From: Armatimonadota bacterium
Lineage (GTDB): Bacteria; Armatimonadota; UBA5829
Reading direction: 5' to 3'
Assembly: GCA_026392045.1 (NCBI GenBank)
Contig: JAPLCU010000041.1
Span: 84-64,083, forward strand
Length of the DNA: 64,000 bases
Shown here: in pieces, positions 2,733-48,123 of the stretch
How the letters are laid out: the number at the start of each line of letters is the position of its first letter
Numbering within the stretch: the stretch's first letter is position 1
Program-made: the position numbers and the translations under genes
The notes under the pieces: model-generated
Seen by the model: the letters and a program-made list of their open reading frames with translations, nothing else
What the model was told of the DNA's origin: nothing
Database searches by the model: none

Positions 2733-4750
2733 CTAAGGCAATGGCACGTTAATGACAGTGTTCACCATTGTAACCGAAGCATACAAGCCCAACGCTCTGC
2801 CTTCCAACGTCGTTATTCTCACTTCGCCGGAGGTAGAGATTTCGACTCCTGCAGAAGCAATAATGGTTCCCACCATGTTAGCGCCAGCGTTGATCGTCGC
2901 TGCACTGCCGACCTGCCAATAGACGTTGTTGGGATTGCCGATGCCGTCCTTGAATATAACCTCGGCAATTAATGGGTCACTTGTGTCGCCCACGGTGAGT
3001 GATGCCCCCATCTGGAAGACCCAGACTGCATTCGGGTCACCCAAAGCGTCGAGCGTTAGAGTTCCCCCTGCCTCTATATTGAACGTGTCTCCCGCGGCTT
3101 TGTAGACGCCAGGGGCGAGGACCAGCCCACTTAGCTCGCCGGAGGCACTTGGATCAGGCCCCGTTGGGGCTAATCCTGCGAGATCGTTCCACGCTTCGAG
3201 CGAGTCGTCAAAGGCCGCCTGTGCTATCGCCATTGTGGCCAAAGTTCCTCCCACAGGAGTACCACCTGGGTGCGCCGGTGGCGGTGCATCAGTGTATATC
3301 CTCCCGGTGACCTCTCCATCAGGTGCACCGTATTCGTCTCCGGTGCTATCGAAGAATGCGACCACCAAAGTAGAAGCAGCCGTGGTTCCAATATCACCAT
3401 CGATGACGGTAAGGATCCCCTCGTTGGTTATCCCGGCACCACCCCCGAAAGCGCCGAAGGAGGCGGCCGATCCAAGGTCTCCTGGTGCTGGACCCGGCGC
3501 GAAATTGGCCGTGACCGTCTTGTCCTCGTCCATCGTGATCGTGGTCGGATTCATTGTGCCGCTCAAATCGCCGCTCCAGCCGACAAAGTGGTAGCCTGCC
3601 GCCGCCGCCGCCGTCAGCCCAATCACAGTTCCATAGTTATACGTCGGCTGATTCAGCGACTTCATCACATCCCCGTTCTCCGCAATTACCGTCAGGGTGT
3701 AGTTGTTGCCAACGATGAATGTGGCGCTGGGTCCGGCGGCAAGCGCTAAATTACCTGCCGCATCGGATGCCGTGTTCGCCGCTATCGAGATTCCCAGCGT
3801 ACCATTGCCGGTGATACTGGAAATCCTTACCGTTCTGGTTGCCGTGCCACTACCGGAAACAGCTACCGTTCCGTTGGCCGTGCCTGTCTTGTTCAGTGTG
3901 ACATTACCCGCCACAAGCGTGACAGTATTAGCGCCGCCGTACGTAATCGTATAGGTTATCGGGCCACTCCTCGTCTGCAATGCCGAGGGAGCGCCGATAC
4001 TGATTGTCGGCCTGGTGTTGTCAACGGTGAACCTGGTGCTGGGTCCGGCGGCAAGCGCTAAGTTACCAGTCGTATCGGATGCCGTGCTCGGCGCTATCGA
4101 GATCCCCAGCGTACCATTGCCGGTGATACTGGAAATCCTTACCGTTCTGGTTGCCGTGCCACTACCGGATACAGCTAACGTTCCGTTGGCCGTGCCTGTC
4201 TTGTTCAGTGTGACATTACCTGCCAGAAGCGTGACAGTATTAGCGCCGCCATACGTAATCGTATAGGTTATCGGGCCATTTCTCGTCTGCAATGCCGAGG
4301 GAGCGCCGATACTGATTGTCGGCCTGGTCACATCATACGTCACCGTATTGTCGGTGGAGGTAGATGCCTTGCTGGCATTACCCATTTGACGTCGTGCGCG
4401 ACACCGGCCGCCAAGTTCGCAATCACCGTACCACTGCCCGTCATGCCGGTGACGGCCACGTTGTATGTCTTACCGGTCCCGGTGACCGTGCGAACCAGTG
4501 TGCCGGGCGCTGTACCGGTCAGGGTGACATCGCCAGCGGCGAAGTCTTTGACCGCCTTGCTGAAGACCACGGTGAAGTTGATCGGCGACGTCCTCGTCGG
4601 GTCGGCTTGGCCGACTTTCTGATTGATGGTGACGGTGGGCTTGACGACCAATTGTGCAGGCACCATTGATGCCCATCCGACTACAGAAACGACCAGAATT
4701 AATAACGTAAGCCCTAAATATGTGGTGTATATGCGCATTTTCTTGTCCAT
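2733..4750 (-). CDS. repeat-containing surface protein with a C-terminal ice-binding-like (DUF3494-type) beta-helix domain; an apparent frameshift near 4385 splits it into ORFs 4340..4750 (signal peptide + repeat 1) and 2733..4385
   Basis: The N-terminal ORF has a signal peptide and a ~100-aa unit resembling the two near-identical tandem ~100-aa repeats in the 550-aa ORF (also visible as a DNA tandem repeat, ~3700-4000 vs ~4010-4300). The C-terminal region shows LGSAASFGAFGGGAGITNEG...GDIG, typical of the ice-binding-like family. Both frames are open over 4340-4385. Confidence 0.55.
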
Positions 4751-5446
4751 TACTTACCTCCAAATTTCATTGTCAAGCCGATGAAGTATCTGGAACCATT
4801 GCCTAAACCAACCTGGCAGGTGAGATCTGGTGTAATGGGCTGGCGAATCGTGGCGCCAAACATGCTCCCGGCAGCAATATCATCAATTATGTAGTCAAAT
4901 CCGAAAGTCGTTTTCCCAGGCGCTACAAACTCTATTCCCATCATTCCGGTGAGGTTGCTGCTTGATGCGCTTTGGTTCGGCCTCTGATAGAGCAAGCCGA
5001 CAGTAGCTCTGTATCTGTCACCTATGCAACAAAGTCTATCGCTAGCGACCAGGTATAGGTCGGTCTCTGCGGTATTGCCGCTGAGGTACATCACACCAGC
5101 CGCTATGCTAGGCGACTTCTCACTCTCATGTGCGAAAATGTACTTCGCATTGATGCCTTTGACTGCAGTGTAGTCTTGGACATTGAAGTAGCTCAGGCCG
5201 ATTTCCCCATTCGCAACCCCATAACCAAGGGTCACAACGGGGAATACAACTATCCCAACGTCAGCCACCTTGGGCCTGTCATAGGCCAACATCATCTCGA
5301 AGTTCCCTTCCGTCACGACCTCTGCCGTAGGTAAGTTCAGAATTCCCGTAGGGCCGATTGAGGAGGGTGCGCTGAATGACGCCGTTGCCATCAAAGACAC
5401 TAACGTCACCAGTCCTGCCAACAACACGTTCTTTTTCATCTGCATA
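4750..5446 (-). CDS. secreted protein with a signal peptide (possible beta-barrel/outer-membrane-like); its stop overlaps the downstream adhesin-like gene start (TAATG)
   Basis: ORF with an AAGGAG RBS 8 nt before ATG (MQMKKNVLLAGLVTLVSLMATASFSA). Alternating hydrophobic pattern. Confidence 0.5.
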
Positions 5447-5791: not shown

Positions 5792-5908
5792 GTGAGTGGA
5801 TTAGATGATCTGACAAGAGAAGAACTGATAGAGCTGGTTTTGAAGCTACACGAGATACTGCAGGCTCAGCAGCGAGAGATTGCTGAGTTTAGGTCTTTTG
5901 GGATTTGA
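5792..5908 (+). pseudogene. IS66-family transposase (TnpC-like) N-terminal fragment of ~38 codons, truncated where a family-5 hairpin element begins
   Basis: Translation VSGLDDLTREELIELVLKLHEILQAQQREIAEFRSFGI* resembles the leucine-zipper N-terminus of IS66 transposases (L-x-EELIALVL...LFGxKSEK). The stop is created inside the repeat. Confidence 0.4.
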
Positions 5909-5976
5909 GTGGAGCGTCAGCGGAACGGAAATCCCAAAACAAACTGCGGCACAACCAAGAGGAAATCGCGGCAAAC
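5895..5976. repeat. family-5 hairpin element copy 1 (stem TTTTGGGATTT / AAATCCCAAAA plus a conserved 3' tail ...CAACCAAGAGGAAATCGCGGCAAAC)
   Basis: Same element at 46921-47000 and 47298-47373, with compensatory stem changes (TTTCGGG/CCCGAAA). Confidence 0.55.
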
Positions 5977-6130
5977 GGGTCGCTTGAAGGATACGCAGCA
6001 TACCCGAATAATTATATATTTCTTAGATGCTACAGCTTCCGCCCATAAGTCGGCATACGTAACGCCAGGTATCCGCCCACACCAGGGCGGCGCTTCGCGC
6101 CTGGCGTTACTTTGCCGAATGGTCCAAAAT

Positions 6131-6175
6131 GTCAGTCATGTCAACATATATAGGTATGACATGACTGACATTGAC
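6131..6175. other. 13-bp perfect inverted repeat GTCAGTCATGTCA-N13-TGACATGACTGAC just downstream of hcp; a nested IR lies at 6086-6114
   Basis: Palindrome 22 nt beyond the hcp stop. On the minus strand it is followed by AUUUUGG. Possible terminator. Confidence 0.35.
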
Positions 6176-6196: not shown

Positions 6197-7849
6197 TTAG
6201 CCGAGGATTTCTTTCAAATCCTGCTCGACTGTTGTAGTCGGCGCTATGTTGAACTTATCAACCAGCACATTAAGCGCGGCGGGAGTTACGAACGCCGGCA
6301 GGCTTGGGCCGAGTTTGATATTCTTGATTCCCAGGTGAAGCAGGGTGAGCAGGATAGCTACAGCCTTCTGCTCATACCAGGATAGAATCATCGAAAGCGG
6401 CAGATCATTAACCCCGATTCCGAATGCGTTTGCAAGCGCAACTGCTATCTGAATTGCTGAGTAAGCGTCGTTGCACTGGCCGATATCCAGCAGTCTCGGA
6501 ATGCCGCCGATGTCGCCGAAATCGAGTTTGTTGAACCGATATTTGCCGCATGCGAGCGTCAGGATAACGCAATCTTTCGGCACGGCCTGGGCGAAATCGG
6601 TAAAGTAGTTTCTGCCTGGCTTGGCGCCGTCGCAGCCGCCAATCAGGAAGAAATGCTTGATCGCGCCGGCTCTTACGGCATCGATAACCGGTCCCGCAAT
6701 GTTCATTACCGCGTTGTGACCGAATCCGACCATGATTGTCTTGCCGGAACCGTCTTGCGTGAATCCGGGAGCTGCAAGCGCAGCTTCTATTACAGGGGTG
6801 AAATCTTTCTTGCACCCGATGTGCGTCACGCCCGGCCAAGCAACAAGCCCGGTGGTGAAAATGCGATCACTGTATGTTTCGCGCGGCTTCTGGATGCAGT
6901 TTGTGGTCATGAGAATCGCGCCAGGGAACGCATCAAATTCTTTCGCCTGATCCTGCCATGCGCCGCCGTAATTGCCCACGAGGTGCGAGTGCTTTTTGAG
7001 CTCAGGATAGCCATGAGCCGGGAGCATTTCGCCGTGGGTGTAGATATTGATTCCCTTGCCCTCGGTCTGCTCCAGGAGCATTTTCAAATCTTTGAGATCA
7101 TGGCCGGAGACTACGATTGCCTTGCCCTTGACAGGCTCGATGCGGACCGCCGTCGGCACAGGGTCGCCGAACGCGCCGGTATTTGCCGTGTCCAGAAGCC
7201 CCATTACCGTAAGGTTCAGCTCGCCAACTTTAAGCGACCACCCAAGCAGGTCATCTATGCTAGGGCTTGGTGTCGTAAGGAAGTCCAACGCTTCATGGAA
7301 TGTGGCGTAAACTTCATCGCTCTCTTTGCCAAGGACACGAGCATGGTCAGCGTAGGCCGCTGTGCCTTTCAGGCCATAAGTGACCAGCTCGATAAGGCCG
7401 GTGATATCATCGCCAAGAGTCGATTTTCGGCTCAATACGCCTACTTCTCGGCCTTGAGCTACCAGGCCGTCGATGTCTGCCGCAGGAGCCCATGCTGCCG
7501 GGCCGCTGAGCGTTTCGGGAGTCTGGCCTTTCGCTGCTGCTGCCGCTTCATACATTGCTTTGGCTTTATTTTTGATCTCGCCTGCTTTTTTGAGGAATGA
7601 TTCAATTCGAGCTGGGTCGAAATCCACATTGGTGACCGTCGTGAAGAGCGCTTCGATCAGAAAAGCGTCTACCTCGTTATTGACTGCGCCGAGTTTTCTC
7701 GCGCGGTTGGCATACATCGAGATACCCTTCGACGCATAAACCAATAGGTCTTGAAGCGTTGCTGTGGTTTCGTCCTTACCACACACGCCGCGAACCGTGC
7801 AACCCGTTCCCATTGCAGTTTGTTCGCACTGATAGCAATACATACTCAT
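6197..7849 (-). CDS. hcp: hybrid cluster protein / hydroxylamine reductase
   Basis: N-terminal MSMYCYQCEQT cysteine motif. Full-length 550 aa typical of Hcp. GGAGG RBS. Confidence 0.9.
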   Translation of the reverse strand: MSMYCYQCEQTAMGTGCTVRGVCGKDETTATLQDLLVYASKGISMYANRARKLGAVNNEVDAFLIEALFTTVTNVDFDPARIESFLKKAGEIKNKAKAMYEAAAAAKGQTPETLSGPAAWAPAADIDGLVAQGREVGVLSRKSTLGDDITGLIELVTYGLKGTAAYADHARVLGKESDEVYATFHEALDFLTTPSPSIDDLLGWSLKVGELNLTVMGLLDTANTGAFGDPVPTAVRIEPVKGKAIVVSGHDLKDLKMLLEQTEGKGINIYTHGEMLPAHGYPELKKHSHLVGNYGGAWQDQAKEFDAFPGAILMTTNCIQKPRETYSDRIFTTGLVAWPGVTHIGCKKDFTPVIEAALAAPGFTQDGSGKTIMVGFGHNAVMNIAGPVIDAVRAGAIKHFFLIGGCDGAKPGRNYFTDFAQAVPKDCVILTLACGKYRFNKLDFGDIGGIPRLLDIGQCNDAYSAIQIAVALANAFGIGVNDLPLSMILSWYEQKAVAILLTLLHLGIKNIKLGPSLPAFVTPAALNVLVDKFNIAPTTTVEQDLKEILG

Positions 7850-13272: not shown

Positions 13273-13573
13273 GTATGCTGCGGGCACGGCTGCCTGCACT
13301 TTGTTGGCAGATTTGCGCGTTCAAGAGTTCCCGCAGCTATTACACAATCAGCCGGTGATAGCTGCGGGAATTGACGTTTGATGAATCTTGCTGCGTTGTC
13401 GCTCATCGCCATTCCCGCAGCATCAAAATCGGCAAACGCCGGAATTGACGAATCCTGAGCGCTTACAGTAAAGTTAGACGTGCCCGCCGTCGTTGGTGTT
13501 CCCGATATTGTATGCTGCGGGCACGGCTGCCTGCACTTTGTTGGCAGATTTGCGCGTTCAAGAGTTCCCGCAG
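13273..13573. repeat. REP-like array, family 1: two identical 64-bp units (13273-13336 and 13510-13573) plus chained GCTGCGGGAA/TTCCCGCAGC hairpins between them
   Basis: Exact 64-bp direct repeat. Inverted-arm pairs at 13329-13376 and 13367-13420. A degenerate arm is also at 12418-12449. Confidence 0.7.
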
Positions 13574-13686
13574 CATCAATTGTTGAGAGGGTAAGAAGAC
13601 TGCGGGAGATGTAGCCGATTTTGTGCTGGTATTGGATTTCCACCACAGCTGCGCCCTGGAACGGATTTCCAGGACGATCTTACATT

Positions 13687-17944: not shown

Positions 17945-18763
17945 ATGATGACAACCAAAAATATGGGCAAACTTGCAGTAATCGGCGCGGGAGCTATCGG
18001 CACGGCGCTTGCCAGGGGGTGGATATCGGCTGGGCTATTTGAGCCGGGCGATGTCACGATGGCAGATATCGATAAGAAACTGCTTGAAACGCGTTCAGCG
18101 CAGATGGGCGTTAAAGTGACGACAGACAATGGCGAGGCCGTAAGAGCGGCTGATGTTATTTTGCTTGCGGTGAAGCCCAACATCACGGCGCTGGCGTTAT
18201 CGCAGATTTGCGGAGCCTTGAAGGGTGGGCAGTTGGTTGTCTCTATCGCGGCGGGGGTGAAACTGCATGTGATTGAGTCCCGCCTACCTGAGGGGACGGC
18301 CGTTATCAGAGCTATGCCTAACACGCCGTGTATGGTGGGCGCCGGAGCTACTGCTTTTTGCAGAGGCAAGCACGTCACTGATGCACACGTTGTCATAGGC
18401 AAAAAGCTCTTTGATGCGGTCGGGATTGCGTTGGAAGTCCAGGAGAAGATGCTGGACGCTGTGACTGGTTTGAGCGGCAGCGGGCCTGCTTATGTATATA
18501 TAATGATCGAGGCGCTTTCGGATGCTGGCGTGCGAGTCGGCCTTGCGAGGGATGTTGCAATGCAGCTTTCGGCGCAGACGGTTATGGGCGCGGCGCGGAT
18601 GGTGTTGGAATCTAATGAACATCCGGGCCAGCTAAAGGACCGCGTAACCAGCCCTGGAGGCACGGCTATTGCAGGCATAGATGCCTTGGAAAAAGCCGGT
18701 TTCAGGTCTGCGATCATCCAGGCTGTCAAAGCTGCGACGAAGCGCGCAGAAGAATTAGGATAG
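17945..18763 (+). CDS. proC: pyrroline-5-carboxylate reductase
   Basis: N-terminal AVIGAGAIGTALARG Rossmann motif. C-terminal SPGGTAIAGI, typical of ProC. Confidence 0.85.
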   Translation: MMTTKNMGKLAVIGAGAIGTALARGWISAGLFEPGDVTMADIDKKLLETRSAQMGVKVTTDNGEAVRAADVILLAVKPNITALALSQICGALKGGQLVVSIAAGVKLHVIESRLPEGTAVIRAMPNTPCMVGAGATAFCRGKHVTDAHVVIGKKLFDAVGIALEVQEKMLDAVTGLSGSGPAYVYIMIEALSDAGVRVGLARDVAMQLSAQTVMGAARMVLESNEHPGQLKDRVTSPGGTAIAGIDALEKAGFRSAIIQAVKAATKRAEELG

Positions 18764-18780
18764 TGATATCTCACTCTTGG

Positions 18781-18870
18781 TGCGAATTACATGTCACCCT
18801 GAACTTGTTTCAGGGTCTGCACTTCGATAAATAGATGCTGAATCAAGTTCAGCATGACAGTTTACGCACT
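18781..18870. repeat. family-2 structured palindromic element, copy A: terminal IR AATTACATGTCA/TGACA.. enclosing two hairpins (CCCTGAA-cttgtt-TCAGGG and ATGCTGAA-tcaag-TTCAGCAT)
   Basis: Homologous copy at 33690-33775, with compensatory base changes in both hairpins. Confidence 0.6.
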
Positions 18871-18916
18871 ATTTGGGAGCGCTTACATATAATGTTGATC
18901 TATAAAGGAAACTAAC

Positions 18917-19390
18917 ATGGCATTAACACCTATTGATATACTCCATACTGAGTTCAAAAGTTCATTCAAAGGCTACAACAAAAGCCAGGTTGATGATTTT
19001 GTGAGTGCCGCGAGCGATGCTCTCGAGAGCGTCTTGCGGGAGAAATGCGAATTGATGCACAAAGTAGACCAGTTACAGGCAGAGGTTGACAGAGTGCGCA
19101 AAATCGAATCGGCTATGTCTGATGCCCTCACGCTTGCTCAGAAGAGCGCGGATGAGGTCAGAGCGAGTGCCCACAAGCAGGCCGAACTGACCCTTAAAGA
19201 AGCAGAAAATGCGCGCGTGCAAATGACCATAGATAACCAGAGAGAGATCGAACGTCAAAGGGCCGATATCGCACTTCTGCAGGAGACTAAGGGGCGTTTT
19301 GAGTCCGAGTTCAGGCTTACGCTGCAAATGTATAAGGATTGGCTGGAAAAGAGCATGCCGGAAAATCTGATTCGGAGCGAGGTCGCCTGA
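18917..19390 (+). CDS. divIVA: DivIVA-domain protein
   Basis: N-terminal MALTPIDILHTEFKSSFKGYNKSQVDDFV is the canonical DivIVA N-terminus. Coiled coil. Confidence 0.8.
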   Translation: MALTPIDILHTEFKSSFKGYNKSQVDDFVSAASDALESVLREKCELMHKVDQLQAEVDRVRKIESAMSDALTLAQKSADEVRASAHKQAELTLKEAENARVQMTIDNQREIERQRADIALLQETKGRFESEFRLTLQMYKDWLEKSMPENLIRSEVA

Positions 19391-26768: not shown

Positions 26769-27914
26769 ATGGCAGTGCAGGAAGCAGGATCGATAGGAAT
26801 AGTTGAAATCCGGTATTTCACATTTGCAGCGCCTCCTAATGAGCTGCAGTTGGAATGCGGACGAACATTGGGGCCGATCACGATCGCGTATGAAATGTAT
26901 GGCGAAATGAACGCTGACAAGAGCAATTGTATTCTTGTGTGCCATGCTCTTTCTGGCGATTCCCACGCTGCGGGAAGATATCATCTTGATGATCCCAAGC
27001 CTGGTTGGTGGGACAGCATGATCGGGCCGGGTAAGGCATTCGACACTGATAAGTATTGCGTTATTTGCTCGAATGTCATTGGCGGGTGCAAAGGAAGCGC
27101 CGGGCCTGGTTCAATTGATCCGGCAACAGGTGAGGTCTATGCGTTAAACTTTCCGATGGTTACCATAAGCGATATGGTGCAGGCGCAGAAAGCGCTGGTC
27201 GACTATTTGGGGATTAGGCAGCTTTTGTGCGTGGTCGGCGGCAGCGCGGGCGGAATGCAGGTGTTGCAGTGGGCGGTTTCTTACCCGGATATGGTGCGGC
27301 TGATTATTCCTATTTGCTCAACAGCAAGGCTTAGCGCTCAGGCGATTGGTTTTGATGCGGTGGGCAGGCAGGCGATTATGGGCGACCCCAATTGGATGGA
27401 TGGCAACTATTATGGCAAGTCGATTCCCAGCATTGGCCTTGGGATTGCAAGGATGGTTGGGCATATAACTTACCTGTCCGAAAAATCAATGCATACAAAG
27501 TTCGGCCGTGATTTGCAGGATAAGCCCAACTTTGATTATGACTTCTTGACTGAGTTTAAGGTTGAGAGTTATTTAAGCTATCGCGGGGATGAGTTTGTTA
27601 AGAGATTTGATGCAAACTCATATTTGTATATAACCAAAGCAATGGACTATTTCGACCTCGCGCAGCCGACTGGCGATTTGAGACGGTCATTATCGGTAGC
27701 GAAGTCAGCGTTTTTGGTGATATCGGTGTCTTCGGATTGGCTATTTCCTCCGTATATGTCCAAGGAGATTGTTTCAGCGCTTAGGAGGAATAATATCGAT
27801 GTGAGCTATGCCGAATTGCAGTCAGATTACGGCCATGACGCATTCTTATTGGAAGTGGATGTTATGACGCGCCTGATAACGAGCTTCCTTGAATATGGAC
27901 AGCCCGCGGAATAG
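26769..27914 (+). CDS. metX: homoserine O-acetyltransferase
   Basis: Alpha/beta-hydrolase MetX signature. Followed by metW. Confidence 0.9.
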
Positions 27915-32348: not shown

Positions 32349-33635
32349 ATGTCGACAGTTGTTTCAAATAATACTCAAAAAATATCTGGGTTGGCGAATA
32401 AAATTTTCAACGTGCGAACCATTCCAATGCTTGCAACCATTTTTGTCTGCCTGGCGCTTTATATTGTCGCCAGAGCCACAAGCCCTAGCTTTGGCTCAGC
32501 CTATGTGTTCATAAATCTATTTGTTGATAATGCGGCGCTGGGCATTGTCGCTGTTGGAATGACAATGGTCATCGTTTCAGGCGGGATAGACCTTTCGGTG
32601 GCGGGTGTGGTCGCTCTTTGTGCATGCGTAATTGCCAAACTTATGGGCGCTTACCACCTGCATCCGGTGATTTGCTGGGTGATTGCCCTTTGTATCGGCA
32701 CGGGAATGGGTTTTCTGACGGGATGTGTGGTGCGTTATTTTAAGATAGAGCCGTTCATCGCGACATTGGCTGGGCTATTCCTCGCGCGCGGAATCGCGTA
32801 TATGATAAGCAATGAGACTGCTATTCCGATAGAGCACCCATTCATGACCAGGATGACCGAGATCGGCTTGCCGATTAAATTTGGGTTTTCAGCGGTAACT
32901 CATTTTTGCGGTTTTCGCTGGGACCCGTTATGGATAGGTTTCCCTGCGTTGGCGGTACTTGCTGTTGTAGCAATCGGCCTGTATATTACGTTATTCACAT
33001 CGCATTTTATGGGATTGCCTGTTGGGCGAACAAAAATCAGGGTTTATGCTCTCAGAGGTTTCTTAGCTGCATTAGCTGCGACAGTGTTCACTGTCTGTCT
33101 TCTCCAATTGGTTTTTCCAATTGGGTCATATTGGATTGGTTTTCGTTGGGATCCTATATGGATCGGGCTGCCCGCATTGGTTTTGCTTGCAGTTGTTGCT
33201 GTTGGGCTGTATATTACTTTCTTTACTTCGTTTGGGCGCAATCTATTCGCTGTTGGCGGCAATGAGGATGCCGCGCACTTGATGGGGCTGCCTGTTGGGC
33301 GGACCAAAGTGATGGTTTACATGCTCAGCGGATTCCTTGCCGCATTGGCTGCGATAGTGTTTACGATTTACCTGCCCTCCGGCGACCCGACCGGCGCTGA
33401 TGGCTGGGAGCTCAATGCAATTGCCGCATCAGTTATCGGAGGCACTCTGATGACCGGTGGAGCGGGTAATGTGTTTGGAACTCTTATCGGCGTTATGATT
33501 CTGGGAATTATTATGTCCAGCATGGACTTCCATAACGTGAGCTCGTATTACGCAAAAATCGTTATCGGCGTGTTGCTGTTGGTTTTTGTAGTTTTGCAGA
33601 GATTCTTGAGCGGCAGCTCGTTGCGCAAGAATTAG
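32349..33635 (+). CDS. yjfF: sugar ABC transporter permease, YjfF-like, carrying an internal diverged tandem duplication (~32911-33138 vs ~33139-33400)
   Basis: Permease motif FGRNLFAVGGNEDAAHLMG is present only in copy 2. The duplicated ~76-aa segment begins GFRWDP(L/I)WIG(F/L)PAL in both copies. Confidence 0.75.
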   Translation: MSTVVSNNTQKISGLANKIFNVRTIPMLATIFVCLALYIVARATSPSFGSAYVFINLFVDNAALGIVAVGMTMVIVSGGIDLSVAGVVALCACVIAKLMGAYHLHPVICWVIALCIGTGMGFLTGCVVRYFKIEPFIATLAGLFLARGIAYMISNETAIPIEHPFMTRMTEIGLPIKFGFSAVTHFCGFRWDPLWIGFPALAVLAVVAIGLYITLFTSHFMGLPVGRTKIRVYALRGFLAALAATVFTVCLLQLVFPIGSYWIGFRWDPIWIGLPALVLLAVVAVGLYITFFTSFGRNLFAVGGNEDAAHLMGLPVGRTKVMVYMLSGFLAALAAIVFTIYLPSGDPTGADGWELNAIAASVIGGTLMTGGAGNVFGTLIGVMILGIIMSSMDFHNVSSYYAKIVIGVLLLVFVVLQRFLSGSSLRKN

Positions 33636-33689
33636 GAAATAGGGAATAGGGAACAGACGGGATTGATGAGTAAGAGTTCAGTCTTAGTG

Positions 33690-33775
33690 TATTTGTCATT
33701 CCGAACTTGATTCGGAATCTAAGCCTTAAGCGTAACATATCCTGAATCGAGTTCAGGATGACATGTAATTCCCGC
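33690..33775. repeat. family-2 structured palindromic element, copy B (hairpins TTCCGAA-cttgat-TTCGGAA and ATCCTGAA-tcgag-TTCAGGAT; end GACATGTAATT)
   Basis: Homologue of 18781-18870. Stems are conserved through paired substitutions. Confidence 0.6.
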
Positions 33776-33892
33776 AAGACTGAACTCTCTCATTGATGAT
33801 GGGCTTGAGCTCCTGAACCACTGAATAGTGTAAAATAGGTTATTCTAGAGTTGCCATTCATAAGGACGTTTGATGCTTTTAGAGAGGTATAT

Positions 33893-46867: not shown

Positions 46868-47000
46868 CGGGCTGGATTGCAAATCCGCCCGAACTTAGTT
46901 ATTTCGGGAAACCCTCGGTGTTTCGGGATTTGAGTGGAGCGTTAGCGGAACGGAAATCCCGAAATAAACCACGTAACAATCAAGAGGAAATCGCAGCAAA
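46868..47000. repeat. composite repeat: family-4 motif (46868-46899) followed by family-5 hairpin copy 2 (46921-47000)
   Basis: Sequence identity to the copies at 2329/45772 and at 5895/47298. Confidence 0.6.
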
Positions 47001-48062: not shown

Positions 48063-48123
48063 GCTGCGGGAATGGCGGCAAATGATGCTCCTGTAAGATT
48101 AAACAAAGGTCAATTCCCGCAGC
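48063..48123. repeat. family-1 REP unit GCTGCGGGAATGGCG-N32-TCAATTCCCGCAGC
   Basis: Arms identical to the unit at 1-57. Only the loop differs. Confidence 0.6.

Follow-up and report, generated by a model that had tools for sequence, protein, structure and literature searches.

Two palindromic elements in an Armatimonadota genome

What kind of sequence are the two hairpin-rich elements, one at 18781-18870 and the other at 33690-33775, that lie immediately 3′ of plus-strand genes in a 64,000-nucleotide stretch of an Armatimonadota contig (the window)? An earlier note, made from the letters of the window, had described them as a three-stem element, with two internal hairpins that carry compensatory changes and a retained outer repeat, and had named a DNA cruciform or REP, a small RNA, or a MITE as possible identities. 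In the reading that we favor, at a probability of roughly three in four, each locus is a tags-outside (‘HH’) heterodimer of CGTC-2-type REP units and most likely represents non-autonomous selfish mobile DNA.

Anatomy of the two copies

Both copies are doublets of two 27-nt units in inverted orientation, with their tags pointing outward and a variable spacer of 18-20 nt between them. Each unit is made of the tag TGTC, an 8-bp stem, a 5-nt loop and a short tail. The features are as follows.

18770..18791, left flank of copy 1, which resembles the flank of inverted copy 2 (CTCACTCTTG, GTGCG, AATTACA)
18792..18818, plus strand, arm A of copy 1 (REP unit), with tag TGTC at 18792-18795 and tail CT
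18817..18834, spacer of copy 1, 18 nt
18833..18859, minus strand, arm B of copy 1 (REP unit, minus-strand reading), TGTC-ATGCTGAA-cttga-TTCAGCAT-CT
18860..18886, right flank of copy 1, with a weaker likeness to inverted copy 2 (TAC..CACTA ... CTTAC)
33673..33685, left arm of the outer inverted repeat of copy 2, AGAGTTCAGTCTT
33694..33720, plus strand, arm A of copy 2 (REP unit), TGTC-ATTCCGAA-cttga-TTCGGAAT-CT
33719..33738, spacer of copy 2, 20 nt
33737..33763, minus strand, arm B of copy 2 (REP unit, minus-strand reading), TGTC-ATCCTGAA-ctcga-TTCAGGAT-AT
33776..33788, right arm of the outer inverted repeat of copy 2, AAGACTGAACTCT

In arm A of copy 1, the 8-bp stem is formed by 18796-18803 with 18809-18816 around the loop CTTGT (18804-18808). 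By direct reading, the hairpins of copy 1 are ACCCTGAA-cttgt-TTCAGGGT (18796-18816) and ATGCTGAA-tcaag-TTCAGCAT (18835-18855), and those of copy 2 are ATTCCGAA-cttga-TTCGGAAT (33698-33718) and ATCCTGAA-tcgag-TTCAGGAT (33739-33759). In full, copy 1 reads gtgcgAATTACA-TGTCA-CCCTGAA-cttgt-TTCAGGG-T-[18 nt]-A-TGCTGAA-tcaag-TTCAGCA-TGACA-gtttacgcac, and copy 2 reads gtgtatt-TGTCA-TTCCGAA-cttga-TTCGGAA-T-[20 nt]-A-TCCTGAA-tcgag-TTCAGGA-TGACA-TGTAATTcccgc. Counting the adjoining A/T pair, each of the four stems forms a perfect helix of 8 bp closed by a 5-nt loop; no two stems are alike, and each difference is matched on the partner strand, just as had been claimed for the internal hairpins. Within each copy the arms are 80-81% complementary, the right arm being the reverse complement of the left-arm kind of unit. 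The window contains the pattern TGTCA-N4-GAA-N5-TTC-N4-T four times, where 0.33 occurrences would be expected, and none of 100 shuffles reaches this count. The tag TGTC stands 5′ of all four window arms, with CGTCA and AGTCA variants in related loci, the stem starts with AT in three arms and with AC in one, and the tails read CTG, CTA, CTA and ATG.

The outer part of the proposed structure did not survive. A 12-nt inverted repeat, AATTACATGTCA/TGACATGTAATT, had been thought to be kept in both copies, but it is absent as such, and only TGTCA/TGACA is common to the four ends. In copy 1 the repeat is found on the left only, the right side being TGACAGTTTACG, and in copy 2 on the right only, the left side being GTGTATTTGTCA. 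Similarly, AATTACA adjoins a single arm in each copy and is not a family feature. In copy 1 this is the left arm, and in copy 2 it is the right arm, where AATTACA lies 5′ of the unit on the minus strand (plus-strand TGTAATT, 33764-33770). The copies had been compared in the weaker register: copy 2 aligns to copy 1 with a score of 88 when reverse-complemented versus 74 in the register used before, and in the reverse-complement register the likeness runs about 25 nt beyond both ends. Thus, the two copies are oppositely oriented relative to their plus-strand neighbors. The stem changes are compensated in either register. In addition, GTGCG (18780-18784) pairs with CGCAC (18865-18869) in the flanks of copy 1, and copy 2 sits inside a perfect 13-nt inverted repeat.

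Both copies follow plus-strand genes, as originally reported. Copy 1 lies downstream of proC (Pfam P5CR) and is followed by divIVA, and copy 2 lies downstream of a gene for a yjfF-like BPD_transp_2 permease and is followed by one for a DUF5695 protein. The absence of U-tracts was likewise borne out, since neither copy contains a plus-strand stem-plus-U-tract terminator. The yjfF-like ABC permease (32349-33635) is 428 aa long, whereas nearly all of the homologs listed (at least 120) have about 300-370 aa, and the closest among them have 337 aa; its extra length is due to an internal tandem duplication of about 230 nt (32910-33091 and 33138-33364), the copies of which are 74-77% identical.

A family of doublets across bacterial phyla

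The family was collected by a scan of one genome per bacterial species, in which only TGTCA, GAA and TTC were fixed in each arm and tags-outside doublets were required. At least 130 doublets were found at 120 or more loci, and 112 of the 130 doublets listed have perfect 7/7 stems in both arms, though four stem positions per arm had been left free. The doublets listed span at least about 18 phylum-level groups, as the groups are named in the records. The hosts among the matches listed belong to the Bacteroidota, Ignavibacteriota, Spirochaetota, Nitrospirota, Campylobacterota, Bdellovibrionota, Alpha-, Gamma- and ‘Delta’-proteobacteria, Chloroflexota, Planctomycetota, Firmicutes, the Melainabacteria lineage, Dependentiae, Elusimicrobiota, Calditrichota, Caldisericota and Firestonebacteria, together with many Patescibacteria. 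Arms that are 100% identical to window arms over 28-29 nt occur in Elusimicrobia, Spirochaetia, Bacteroidetes, Syntrophales, Thermodesulfovibrionales and a MAG of the cyanobacterial lineage.

Across the doublets listed, the spacer measures 7-37 nt, within the limits set by the search pattern, and the arm consensus, taken from 108 distinct arms, is TGTCATnCTGAACTTGTTTCAGnATCT. The triplet that begins with the last T of the stem is TCT in 209 of the 265 arms listed and TCC in 40. Stem types among the matches listed include TGCTGAA (77), TCCTGAA (52), CCCTGAA (38), TTCCGAA (29) and TTCTGAA (28), and the same few types (TGCTGAA, TCCTGAA, CCCTGAA, TTCCGAA and others) recur across phyla. Hence, the differences between the two window copies are better taken to reflect subtypes of the unit that recur than compensation of mutations at each site. 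Besides doublets, there are solo units and tandem arrays. In an Ignavibacterium MAG (L004, 1445-1680), three CGTC-2 doublets follow each other directly as a tandem array of doublets. Phages were considered as a main carrier and rejected, because only eight stretches with the element were present in 2.9 million viral contigs. One IMG/VR phage contig (L126) has two CGTC-2 doublets between ORFs, 2.7 kb apart (2190-2261 and 4964-5035).

Base pairing is maintained by covariation

Selection on a folded structure, which the earlier note had proposed from two copies, was examined by covariation over 108 distinct arms, arm A of copy 1 among them, with 500 shuffles as control. Watson-Crick or wobble pairs fill 97.2% of the stem cells compared with 85.9% after shuffling, and 107 cells are changed on both sides where 28 are expected. 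The covariation score is 0.338 versus 0.115 for the shuffled arms, none of the 500 shuffles scoring as high, and pairing drops to at most 54% when the partner column is slid. For example, pair 7-23 is C-G in 46 arms, G-C in 31 and T-A in 24, while pair 5-25 is A-T in 99 of the 108 arms and pair 6-24 is T-A in 85. The search pattern had fixed three pairs out of eight and no more, so the variable pairs constitute independent evidence. The base-paired structure of each unit is maintained across many phyla. Mismatches are rare, with no excess of G-T wobble pairs over A-C (7 versus 10 in 2112 cells).

Energy minimization gives another picture of the doublet as a whole. For copy 1, the fold of lowest predicted energy is not the three-stem one but a single long hairpin in which arm pairs with arm (-21.6 kcal/mol as DNA, z = -6.2), and such a hairpin is predicted for 116 of 128 doublets. 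Because folding favors the long hairpin, the case for two local hairpins is made by covariation, that is, by evolution, and not by thermodynamics. The whole window yielded no Rfam match at the gathering score, and a relaxed Rfam scan of copy 1 (18700-18950) returned chance-level matches far below that score.

Doublets combine unlike arms

Heterodimers account for 130 of 132 doublets and for both window copies. Only 2 of the 132 have identical stems in both arms, although 21 would be expected and none of 2000 shuffles fell below 10, so the arms differ much more consistently than chance would allow. As the search pattern demanded tags-outside dimers, the orientation of the dimer is not an independent test, whereas the heterodimer rule is. 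The second variable stem position is typically G in one arm and C in the other, an opposition that places mismatches in the alternative long arm-to-arm hairpin. Long perfect palindromes are unstable in DNA, and the difference between the arms may keep the two local hairpins from collapsing into one such palindrome.

Match to CGTC-2 REPs and other known systems

Di Nocera, De Gregorio and Rocco (2013, BMC Genomics 14:522, PMC3733652) sorted REPs into GTAG- and CGTC-tagged superfamilies. According to the parts of their survey that describe CGTC REPs, the tag is often TGTC, the stem is 8 bp long in families 1 and 2 and nearly always has A and then T as its first two residues, the loop is 5 nt long in families 2-4, and a short unpaired 3′ tail mostly fits CCA (Di Nocera et al. 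2013). In the same parts, these REPs are mostly ‘HH’ dimers, with tags outside, and heterodimers predominate in CGTC-2 and CGTC-3 ‘with no obvious explanation’; they lie between co-directional and convergent genes, near 3′ ends, with some copies intragenic, and are described as having no associated transposase. CGTC-2 is reported there in the genera Novosphingobium, Sphingobium and Sulfurovum, and the hosts reported belong to five phyla (Di Nocera et al. 2013).

The elements studied here share with CGTC-2, as these parts of the survey present it, the tag, the 8-bp stem starting with A and T, the 5-nt loop, HH heterodimers, sites near gene 3′ ends, occasional in-frame copies, the lack of a linked transposase and the sequence of the unit itself. 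The supplement of the survey gives RHSELVSGS as the peptide of an intragenic CGTC-2 copy in Sulfurovum SUN_0512 (Di Nocera et al. 2013), and this peptide is the unit translated, matching CGTCAT-TCT-GAACTTGTTTCAGGATC. Moreover, when a doublet built from the two commonest arm types was used in a BLAST search, replicons of N. aromaticivorans, Sphingobium and Sulfurovum were matched, and the agreement of these genera with those reported to have CGTC-2 supports membership in this family. Membership of the CGTC-2 REP family is therefore well supported, with some uncertainty over the tail consensus, and the REP option, one of those originally listed, fits in tag, stem, loop, heterodimers, context and sequence.

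The class had been described before, and what the elements add to it is confined to their hosts. Armatimonadota, like most of the approximately 18 groups found here, lie outside the five phyla reported in the survey, and the groups beyond that published range include Patescibacteria, Elusimicrobiota, Dependentiae, Nitrospirota and Ignavibacteriota. In detail, the tail seen here is C-T/C-N (CT/CC-N) versus the general CCA consensus of the paper, from which a consensus specific to CGTC-2 may differ, and the likeness between the window copies also takes in about 25 nt of additional flanking sequence.

Other systems resemble the doublets in part. REPINs and their RAYTs (Bertels and Rainey 2011) provide the same arrangement of two inverted palindromic REP units with a short spacer and intergenic dispersal, a 4-nt unpaired tag at the foot of the hairpin, and heterodimeric arms as in the Y/Z2 units of E. 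coli BIMEs. However, the guide of the REPIN/RAYT system is GTAG (GT[AG]G), whereas the four window arms all have TGTC, and REPIN/RAYT repeats are lineage-specific, vertically inherited and co-evolving with a single-copy RAYT, whereas the unit in the window is common to many phyla. Within the CGTC superfamily itself, the survey’s account equates CGTC-1 with Neisseria dRS3 (the dRS3/NIME repeats) and Rickettsia RPE-6, and CGTC-4 with RPE-4 (Di Nocera et al. 2013). RPEs are the classic palindromic repeats found in frame in protein genes, and CGTC-2 behaves likewise in MetE, TsaD and FemAB, although both window copies are intergenic and not intragenic. In contrast, dRS3 is ATTCCC-N8-GGGAAT, with another loop length and stem, and is known for clustered units and phage integration sites. 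At the ends of IS200/IS605 elements (PMC6006769), as here, a guide tetranucleotide precedes the foot of a subterminal hairpin some 20-25 nt long and target sites are not duplicated, and these hairpins are recognized in single-stranded DNA (PMC6006769); the hairpins of the doublet differ in being inverted and not in the same orientation, with no TnpA gene between them and no cleavage-site motif defined. Finally, bacterial MITEs (Correia/NEMIS, RUP, ERIC) are also small, non-coding, dispersed elements with inverted-repeat ends, often transcribed with their neighbors, but they have terminal inverted repeats defined by sequence and the target-site duplications of DDE enzymes, whereas the window arms are covarying hairpins with no duplication.

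Genomic context and presence among relatives

Of the 132 doublets, 112 are intergenic, with 25 in convergent and 7 in divergent contexts, and gene 3′ ends lie a median of 44 nt away. No orientation bias was detected relative to co-directional flanking genes (18 versus 12, p = 0.36), and the genes flanking doublets are unrelated housekeeping genes. The element carries no target-site duplication: direct-repeat lengths at the boundaries equal those of the shuffled control, and no offset is in excess. Nothing beyond TGTCA is conserved family-wide except a frequent T at position -1. A conserved outer stem was rejected, as the flanks of TGTCA/TGACA are no more complementary than shuffled pairs, and only about 7% of doublets, copy 2 included, lie inside a larger inverted repeat. 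The element can also sit in frame inside conserved genes. In-frame intragenic doublets occur in genes for MetE, TsaD, FemAB and a GT2 glycosyltransferase, and Treponema MetE has two of them, one encoding ‘NCHSEFSSESVDSQSLKQVQGDKL’ and the second a similar peptide.

The element is present or absent between close relatives. In the closest relative (GCA_009885305.1, ProC 96% identical), the proC-divIVA spacer is 50 nt long and lacks copy 1. The rest of this spacer has diverged as well, so the empty site is not a clean one and a deletion in the relative could also account for it. In a relative with 81% identical ProC (L122, 3815-3900), the proC-divIVA spacer contains another two-hairpin palindrome, CTTTCGGGACTTCAGTCCCGAAAG ... 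TATCGGGACTGAAGTCCCGATA, and palindromic repeats have landed in this spacer repeatedly. Other relatives have yggT between proC and divIVA (L123, 2957-3214; L124, 2772-3029), a gene that is absent from this position in both the window and the closest relative. As for copy 2, an independent Logan assembly of the same organism (SRR20698647; L150, 2623-2684) ends ...TATTTGTC, exactly at the TGTC tag, and a break at this point is what a multi-copy repeat would be expected to cause.

Weighing selfish DNA against host function

One rival explanation is in terms of RNA. Structures of this kind are reported to play roles at mRNA 3′ ends for some E. coli REPs, and the doublets could be cis-acting 3′ UTR elements, under selection for a structure that protects the upstream mRNA from 3′ exonucleases or that attenuates or terminates transcription. 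Both window copies do follow plus-strand genes, the family favors convergent and co-directional spacers with a median of 44 nt from the stop codon, and the CGTC survey, in its discussion of expression, argues for transcription of many REPs (Di Nocera et al. 2013). However, the doublet has the same reading on either strand, the window copies are oppositely oriented, and the family has no orientation bias relative to flanking genes (18 versus 12). G-T pairs are no commoner than A-C pairs (7 versus 10), there is no plus-strand U-tract in the window copies, and Rfam gave no match. Furthermore, some copies are in frame inside genes, a relative with 96% identical ProC lacks copy 1, and loss of insertions that disrupt promoters would account for the bias toward 3′ ends just as well. 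We therefore consider a 3′ UTR function improbable, and the small-RNA option raised before is disfavored by the same strand symmetry, absent orientation bias, lack of wobble excess and lack of an Rfam match.

Another rival assigns a role to the DNA itself. Binding of gyrase, IHF or a nucleoid protein has been proposed for E. coli BIMEs, and a host-maintained protein-binding or topological site serving chromosome function would suit the dyad symmetry of the doublet and a sequence that is highly conserved across phyla. Yet the bases of the stem covary freely while pairing is kept, the element is present or absent between close relatives and some copies lie in coding sequence. In addition, REP family sizes are stated in the survey to vary 50-fold and to be uneven among species, from which its authors argue that a general function for the host is unlikely (Di Nocera et al. 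2013). Such a site seems very unlikely to us. In a classical MITE, the DDE transposase of a related insertion sequence would bind the 27-nt arms in double-stranded form as terminal inverted repeats. The size of about 70-90 nt, the dispersed intergenic copies and the 80-81% complementarity of the arms suit this reading. However, the outer terminal inverted repeat does not exist as described, there are no target-site duplications and nothing is conserved outside TGTCA; each arm is a covarying palindrome, which an enzyme reading sequence would not need; the arms are kept different from one another; the spacer varies from 7 to 37 nt; solo units and arrays exist; and no insertion sequence with such ends was seen among 103 flanking ORFs or in a metagenome scan. 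We regard the classical MITE as highly improbable. Non-autonomous CGTC-2-type REP doublets remain our preferred reading.

How the doublets might move

If the elements are mobile, an unpaired tag, pairing that is kept despite a varying stem and the lack of target-site duplication together form the substrate architecture of HUH/Y1 enzymes, and propagation through single-stranded DNA is preferred for this reason. The doublet would be copied or moved while the DNA is single-stranded, with an enzyme acting in trans that might read the hairpin and the 4-nt tag at its foot, in the way that IS200/IS605 TnpA and REP-associated tyrosine transposases (RAYTs) handle their substrates. Doublets would have landed in intergenic spacers just downstream of genes, and any effect on the upstream mRNA, such as 3′-end protection or attenuation, would be a side effect.

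Searches for the enzyme itself were negative within their range. A motif scan of the 64-kb window and of 880 kb of related loci detected no HUH/Y1 motif, no transposase was present among the 20 of 55 window ORFs scanned with Pfam, and no protein family is enriched near doublets, the 103 flanking ORFs having given 147 unrelated Pfam families. An association of such hairpins with small GIY-YIG nuclease genes was considered and rejected, because the Pfam scan of these 103 ORFs revealed no enrichment. A tblastn search of plasmids with E. coli RayT gave no match on the Treponema, Sphingobium and Novosphingobium replicons that carry the repeat. Two RAYT-like genes of Bacteroidota are flanked by hairpins other than CGTC-2 units, those in Fulvitalea being GTAG-tagged. 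AATTACA was rejected as well, both as an end common to the family and as the terminus of a parent insertion sequence, with 3 real units in 17 metagenome matches.

Neisseria offers one connection between a RAYT and a CGTC repeat. Bertels and Rainey tied a Neisseria REPIN with the master sequence ATTCCCGCGCAGGCGGGAATC to a Group 2 RAYT, and this master sequence is dRS3 and hence CGTC-1. In an N. gonorrhoeae locus (L154, 960-1100 and 1690-1720), GTAG hairpins lie directly on both sides of the RAYT homolog, and a tags-outside dRS3 doublet lies 130-240 nt upstream of it. As the GTAG hairpins adjoin the gene and dRS3 is further off, the link between RAYT and dRS3 is suggestive but not decisive. A further counterpoint to a RAYT/REPIN-like mode is that RAYT/REPIN systems are specific to their lineages, whereas about 18 phylum-level groups have near-identical units here.

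A bolder proposal is that the CGTC-2 doublet is a single, nearly sequence-invariant mobile element common to these approximately 18 phylum-level groups, including Patescibacteria and Dependentiae with their reduced genomes, with no dedicated transposase. We find this unlikely. Were it true, the element would be propagated by an unrecognized family of nucleases or transposases, or by some conserved enzyme with a housekeeping role that acts on hairpins in single-stranded form, and the rule of different arms would be part of a recognition code, beyond guarding against palindrome instability.

Consequences for annotation and other repeats in the window

The CGTC REP superfamily is the large class of bacterial palindromic repeats with no established mobilizing enzyme. 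That one of its families is nearly unchanged over about 18 phylum-level groups, with arms that are kept different, sharpens the question of the enzyme and does not answer it. In practice, these elements should be masked as REP doublets in annotation and not be called small RNAs, terminators or small ORFs. Translated units (e.g. CHPELVSGS, MLKQVQHD) contaminate gene calls and add about 20-30 residues to proteins such as MetE and TsaD.

The window contains further repeats. A second palindromic family has the core (A/G)TTCCCGCAGC, with 10 copies against 1.75 expected, and its copies are mostly inverted pairs that form hairpins. Its sites are as follows.

47-81, 121-131, 13327-13421, 13564-13574, 26967-26977 and 48063-48123, sites of the (A/G)TTCCCGCAGC repeat

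As CGTCA precedes the copy at 41-57, this family may be another CGTC-tagged REP type. An 84-nt repeat (5892-5975 and 46917-47000, 87% identical) holds an 11-bp hairpin with a compensated change, TTTTGGGATTT/AAATCCCAAAA versus TTTCGGGATTT/AAATCCCGAAA. A perfect 16-nt inverted repeat, AATGTCAGTCATGTCA-N13-TGACATGACTGACATT (6128-6172), lies in the spacer downstream of the minus-strand ORF 6197-7849 and might be a candidate protein-binding site. Lastly, a 300-nt tandem duplication (3704-4003 and 4016-4315, 94% identical) is found inside the long minus-strand ORF 2733-4385.
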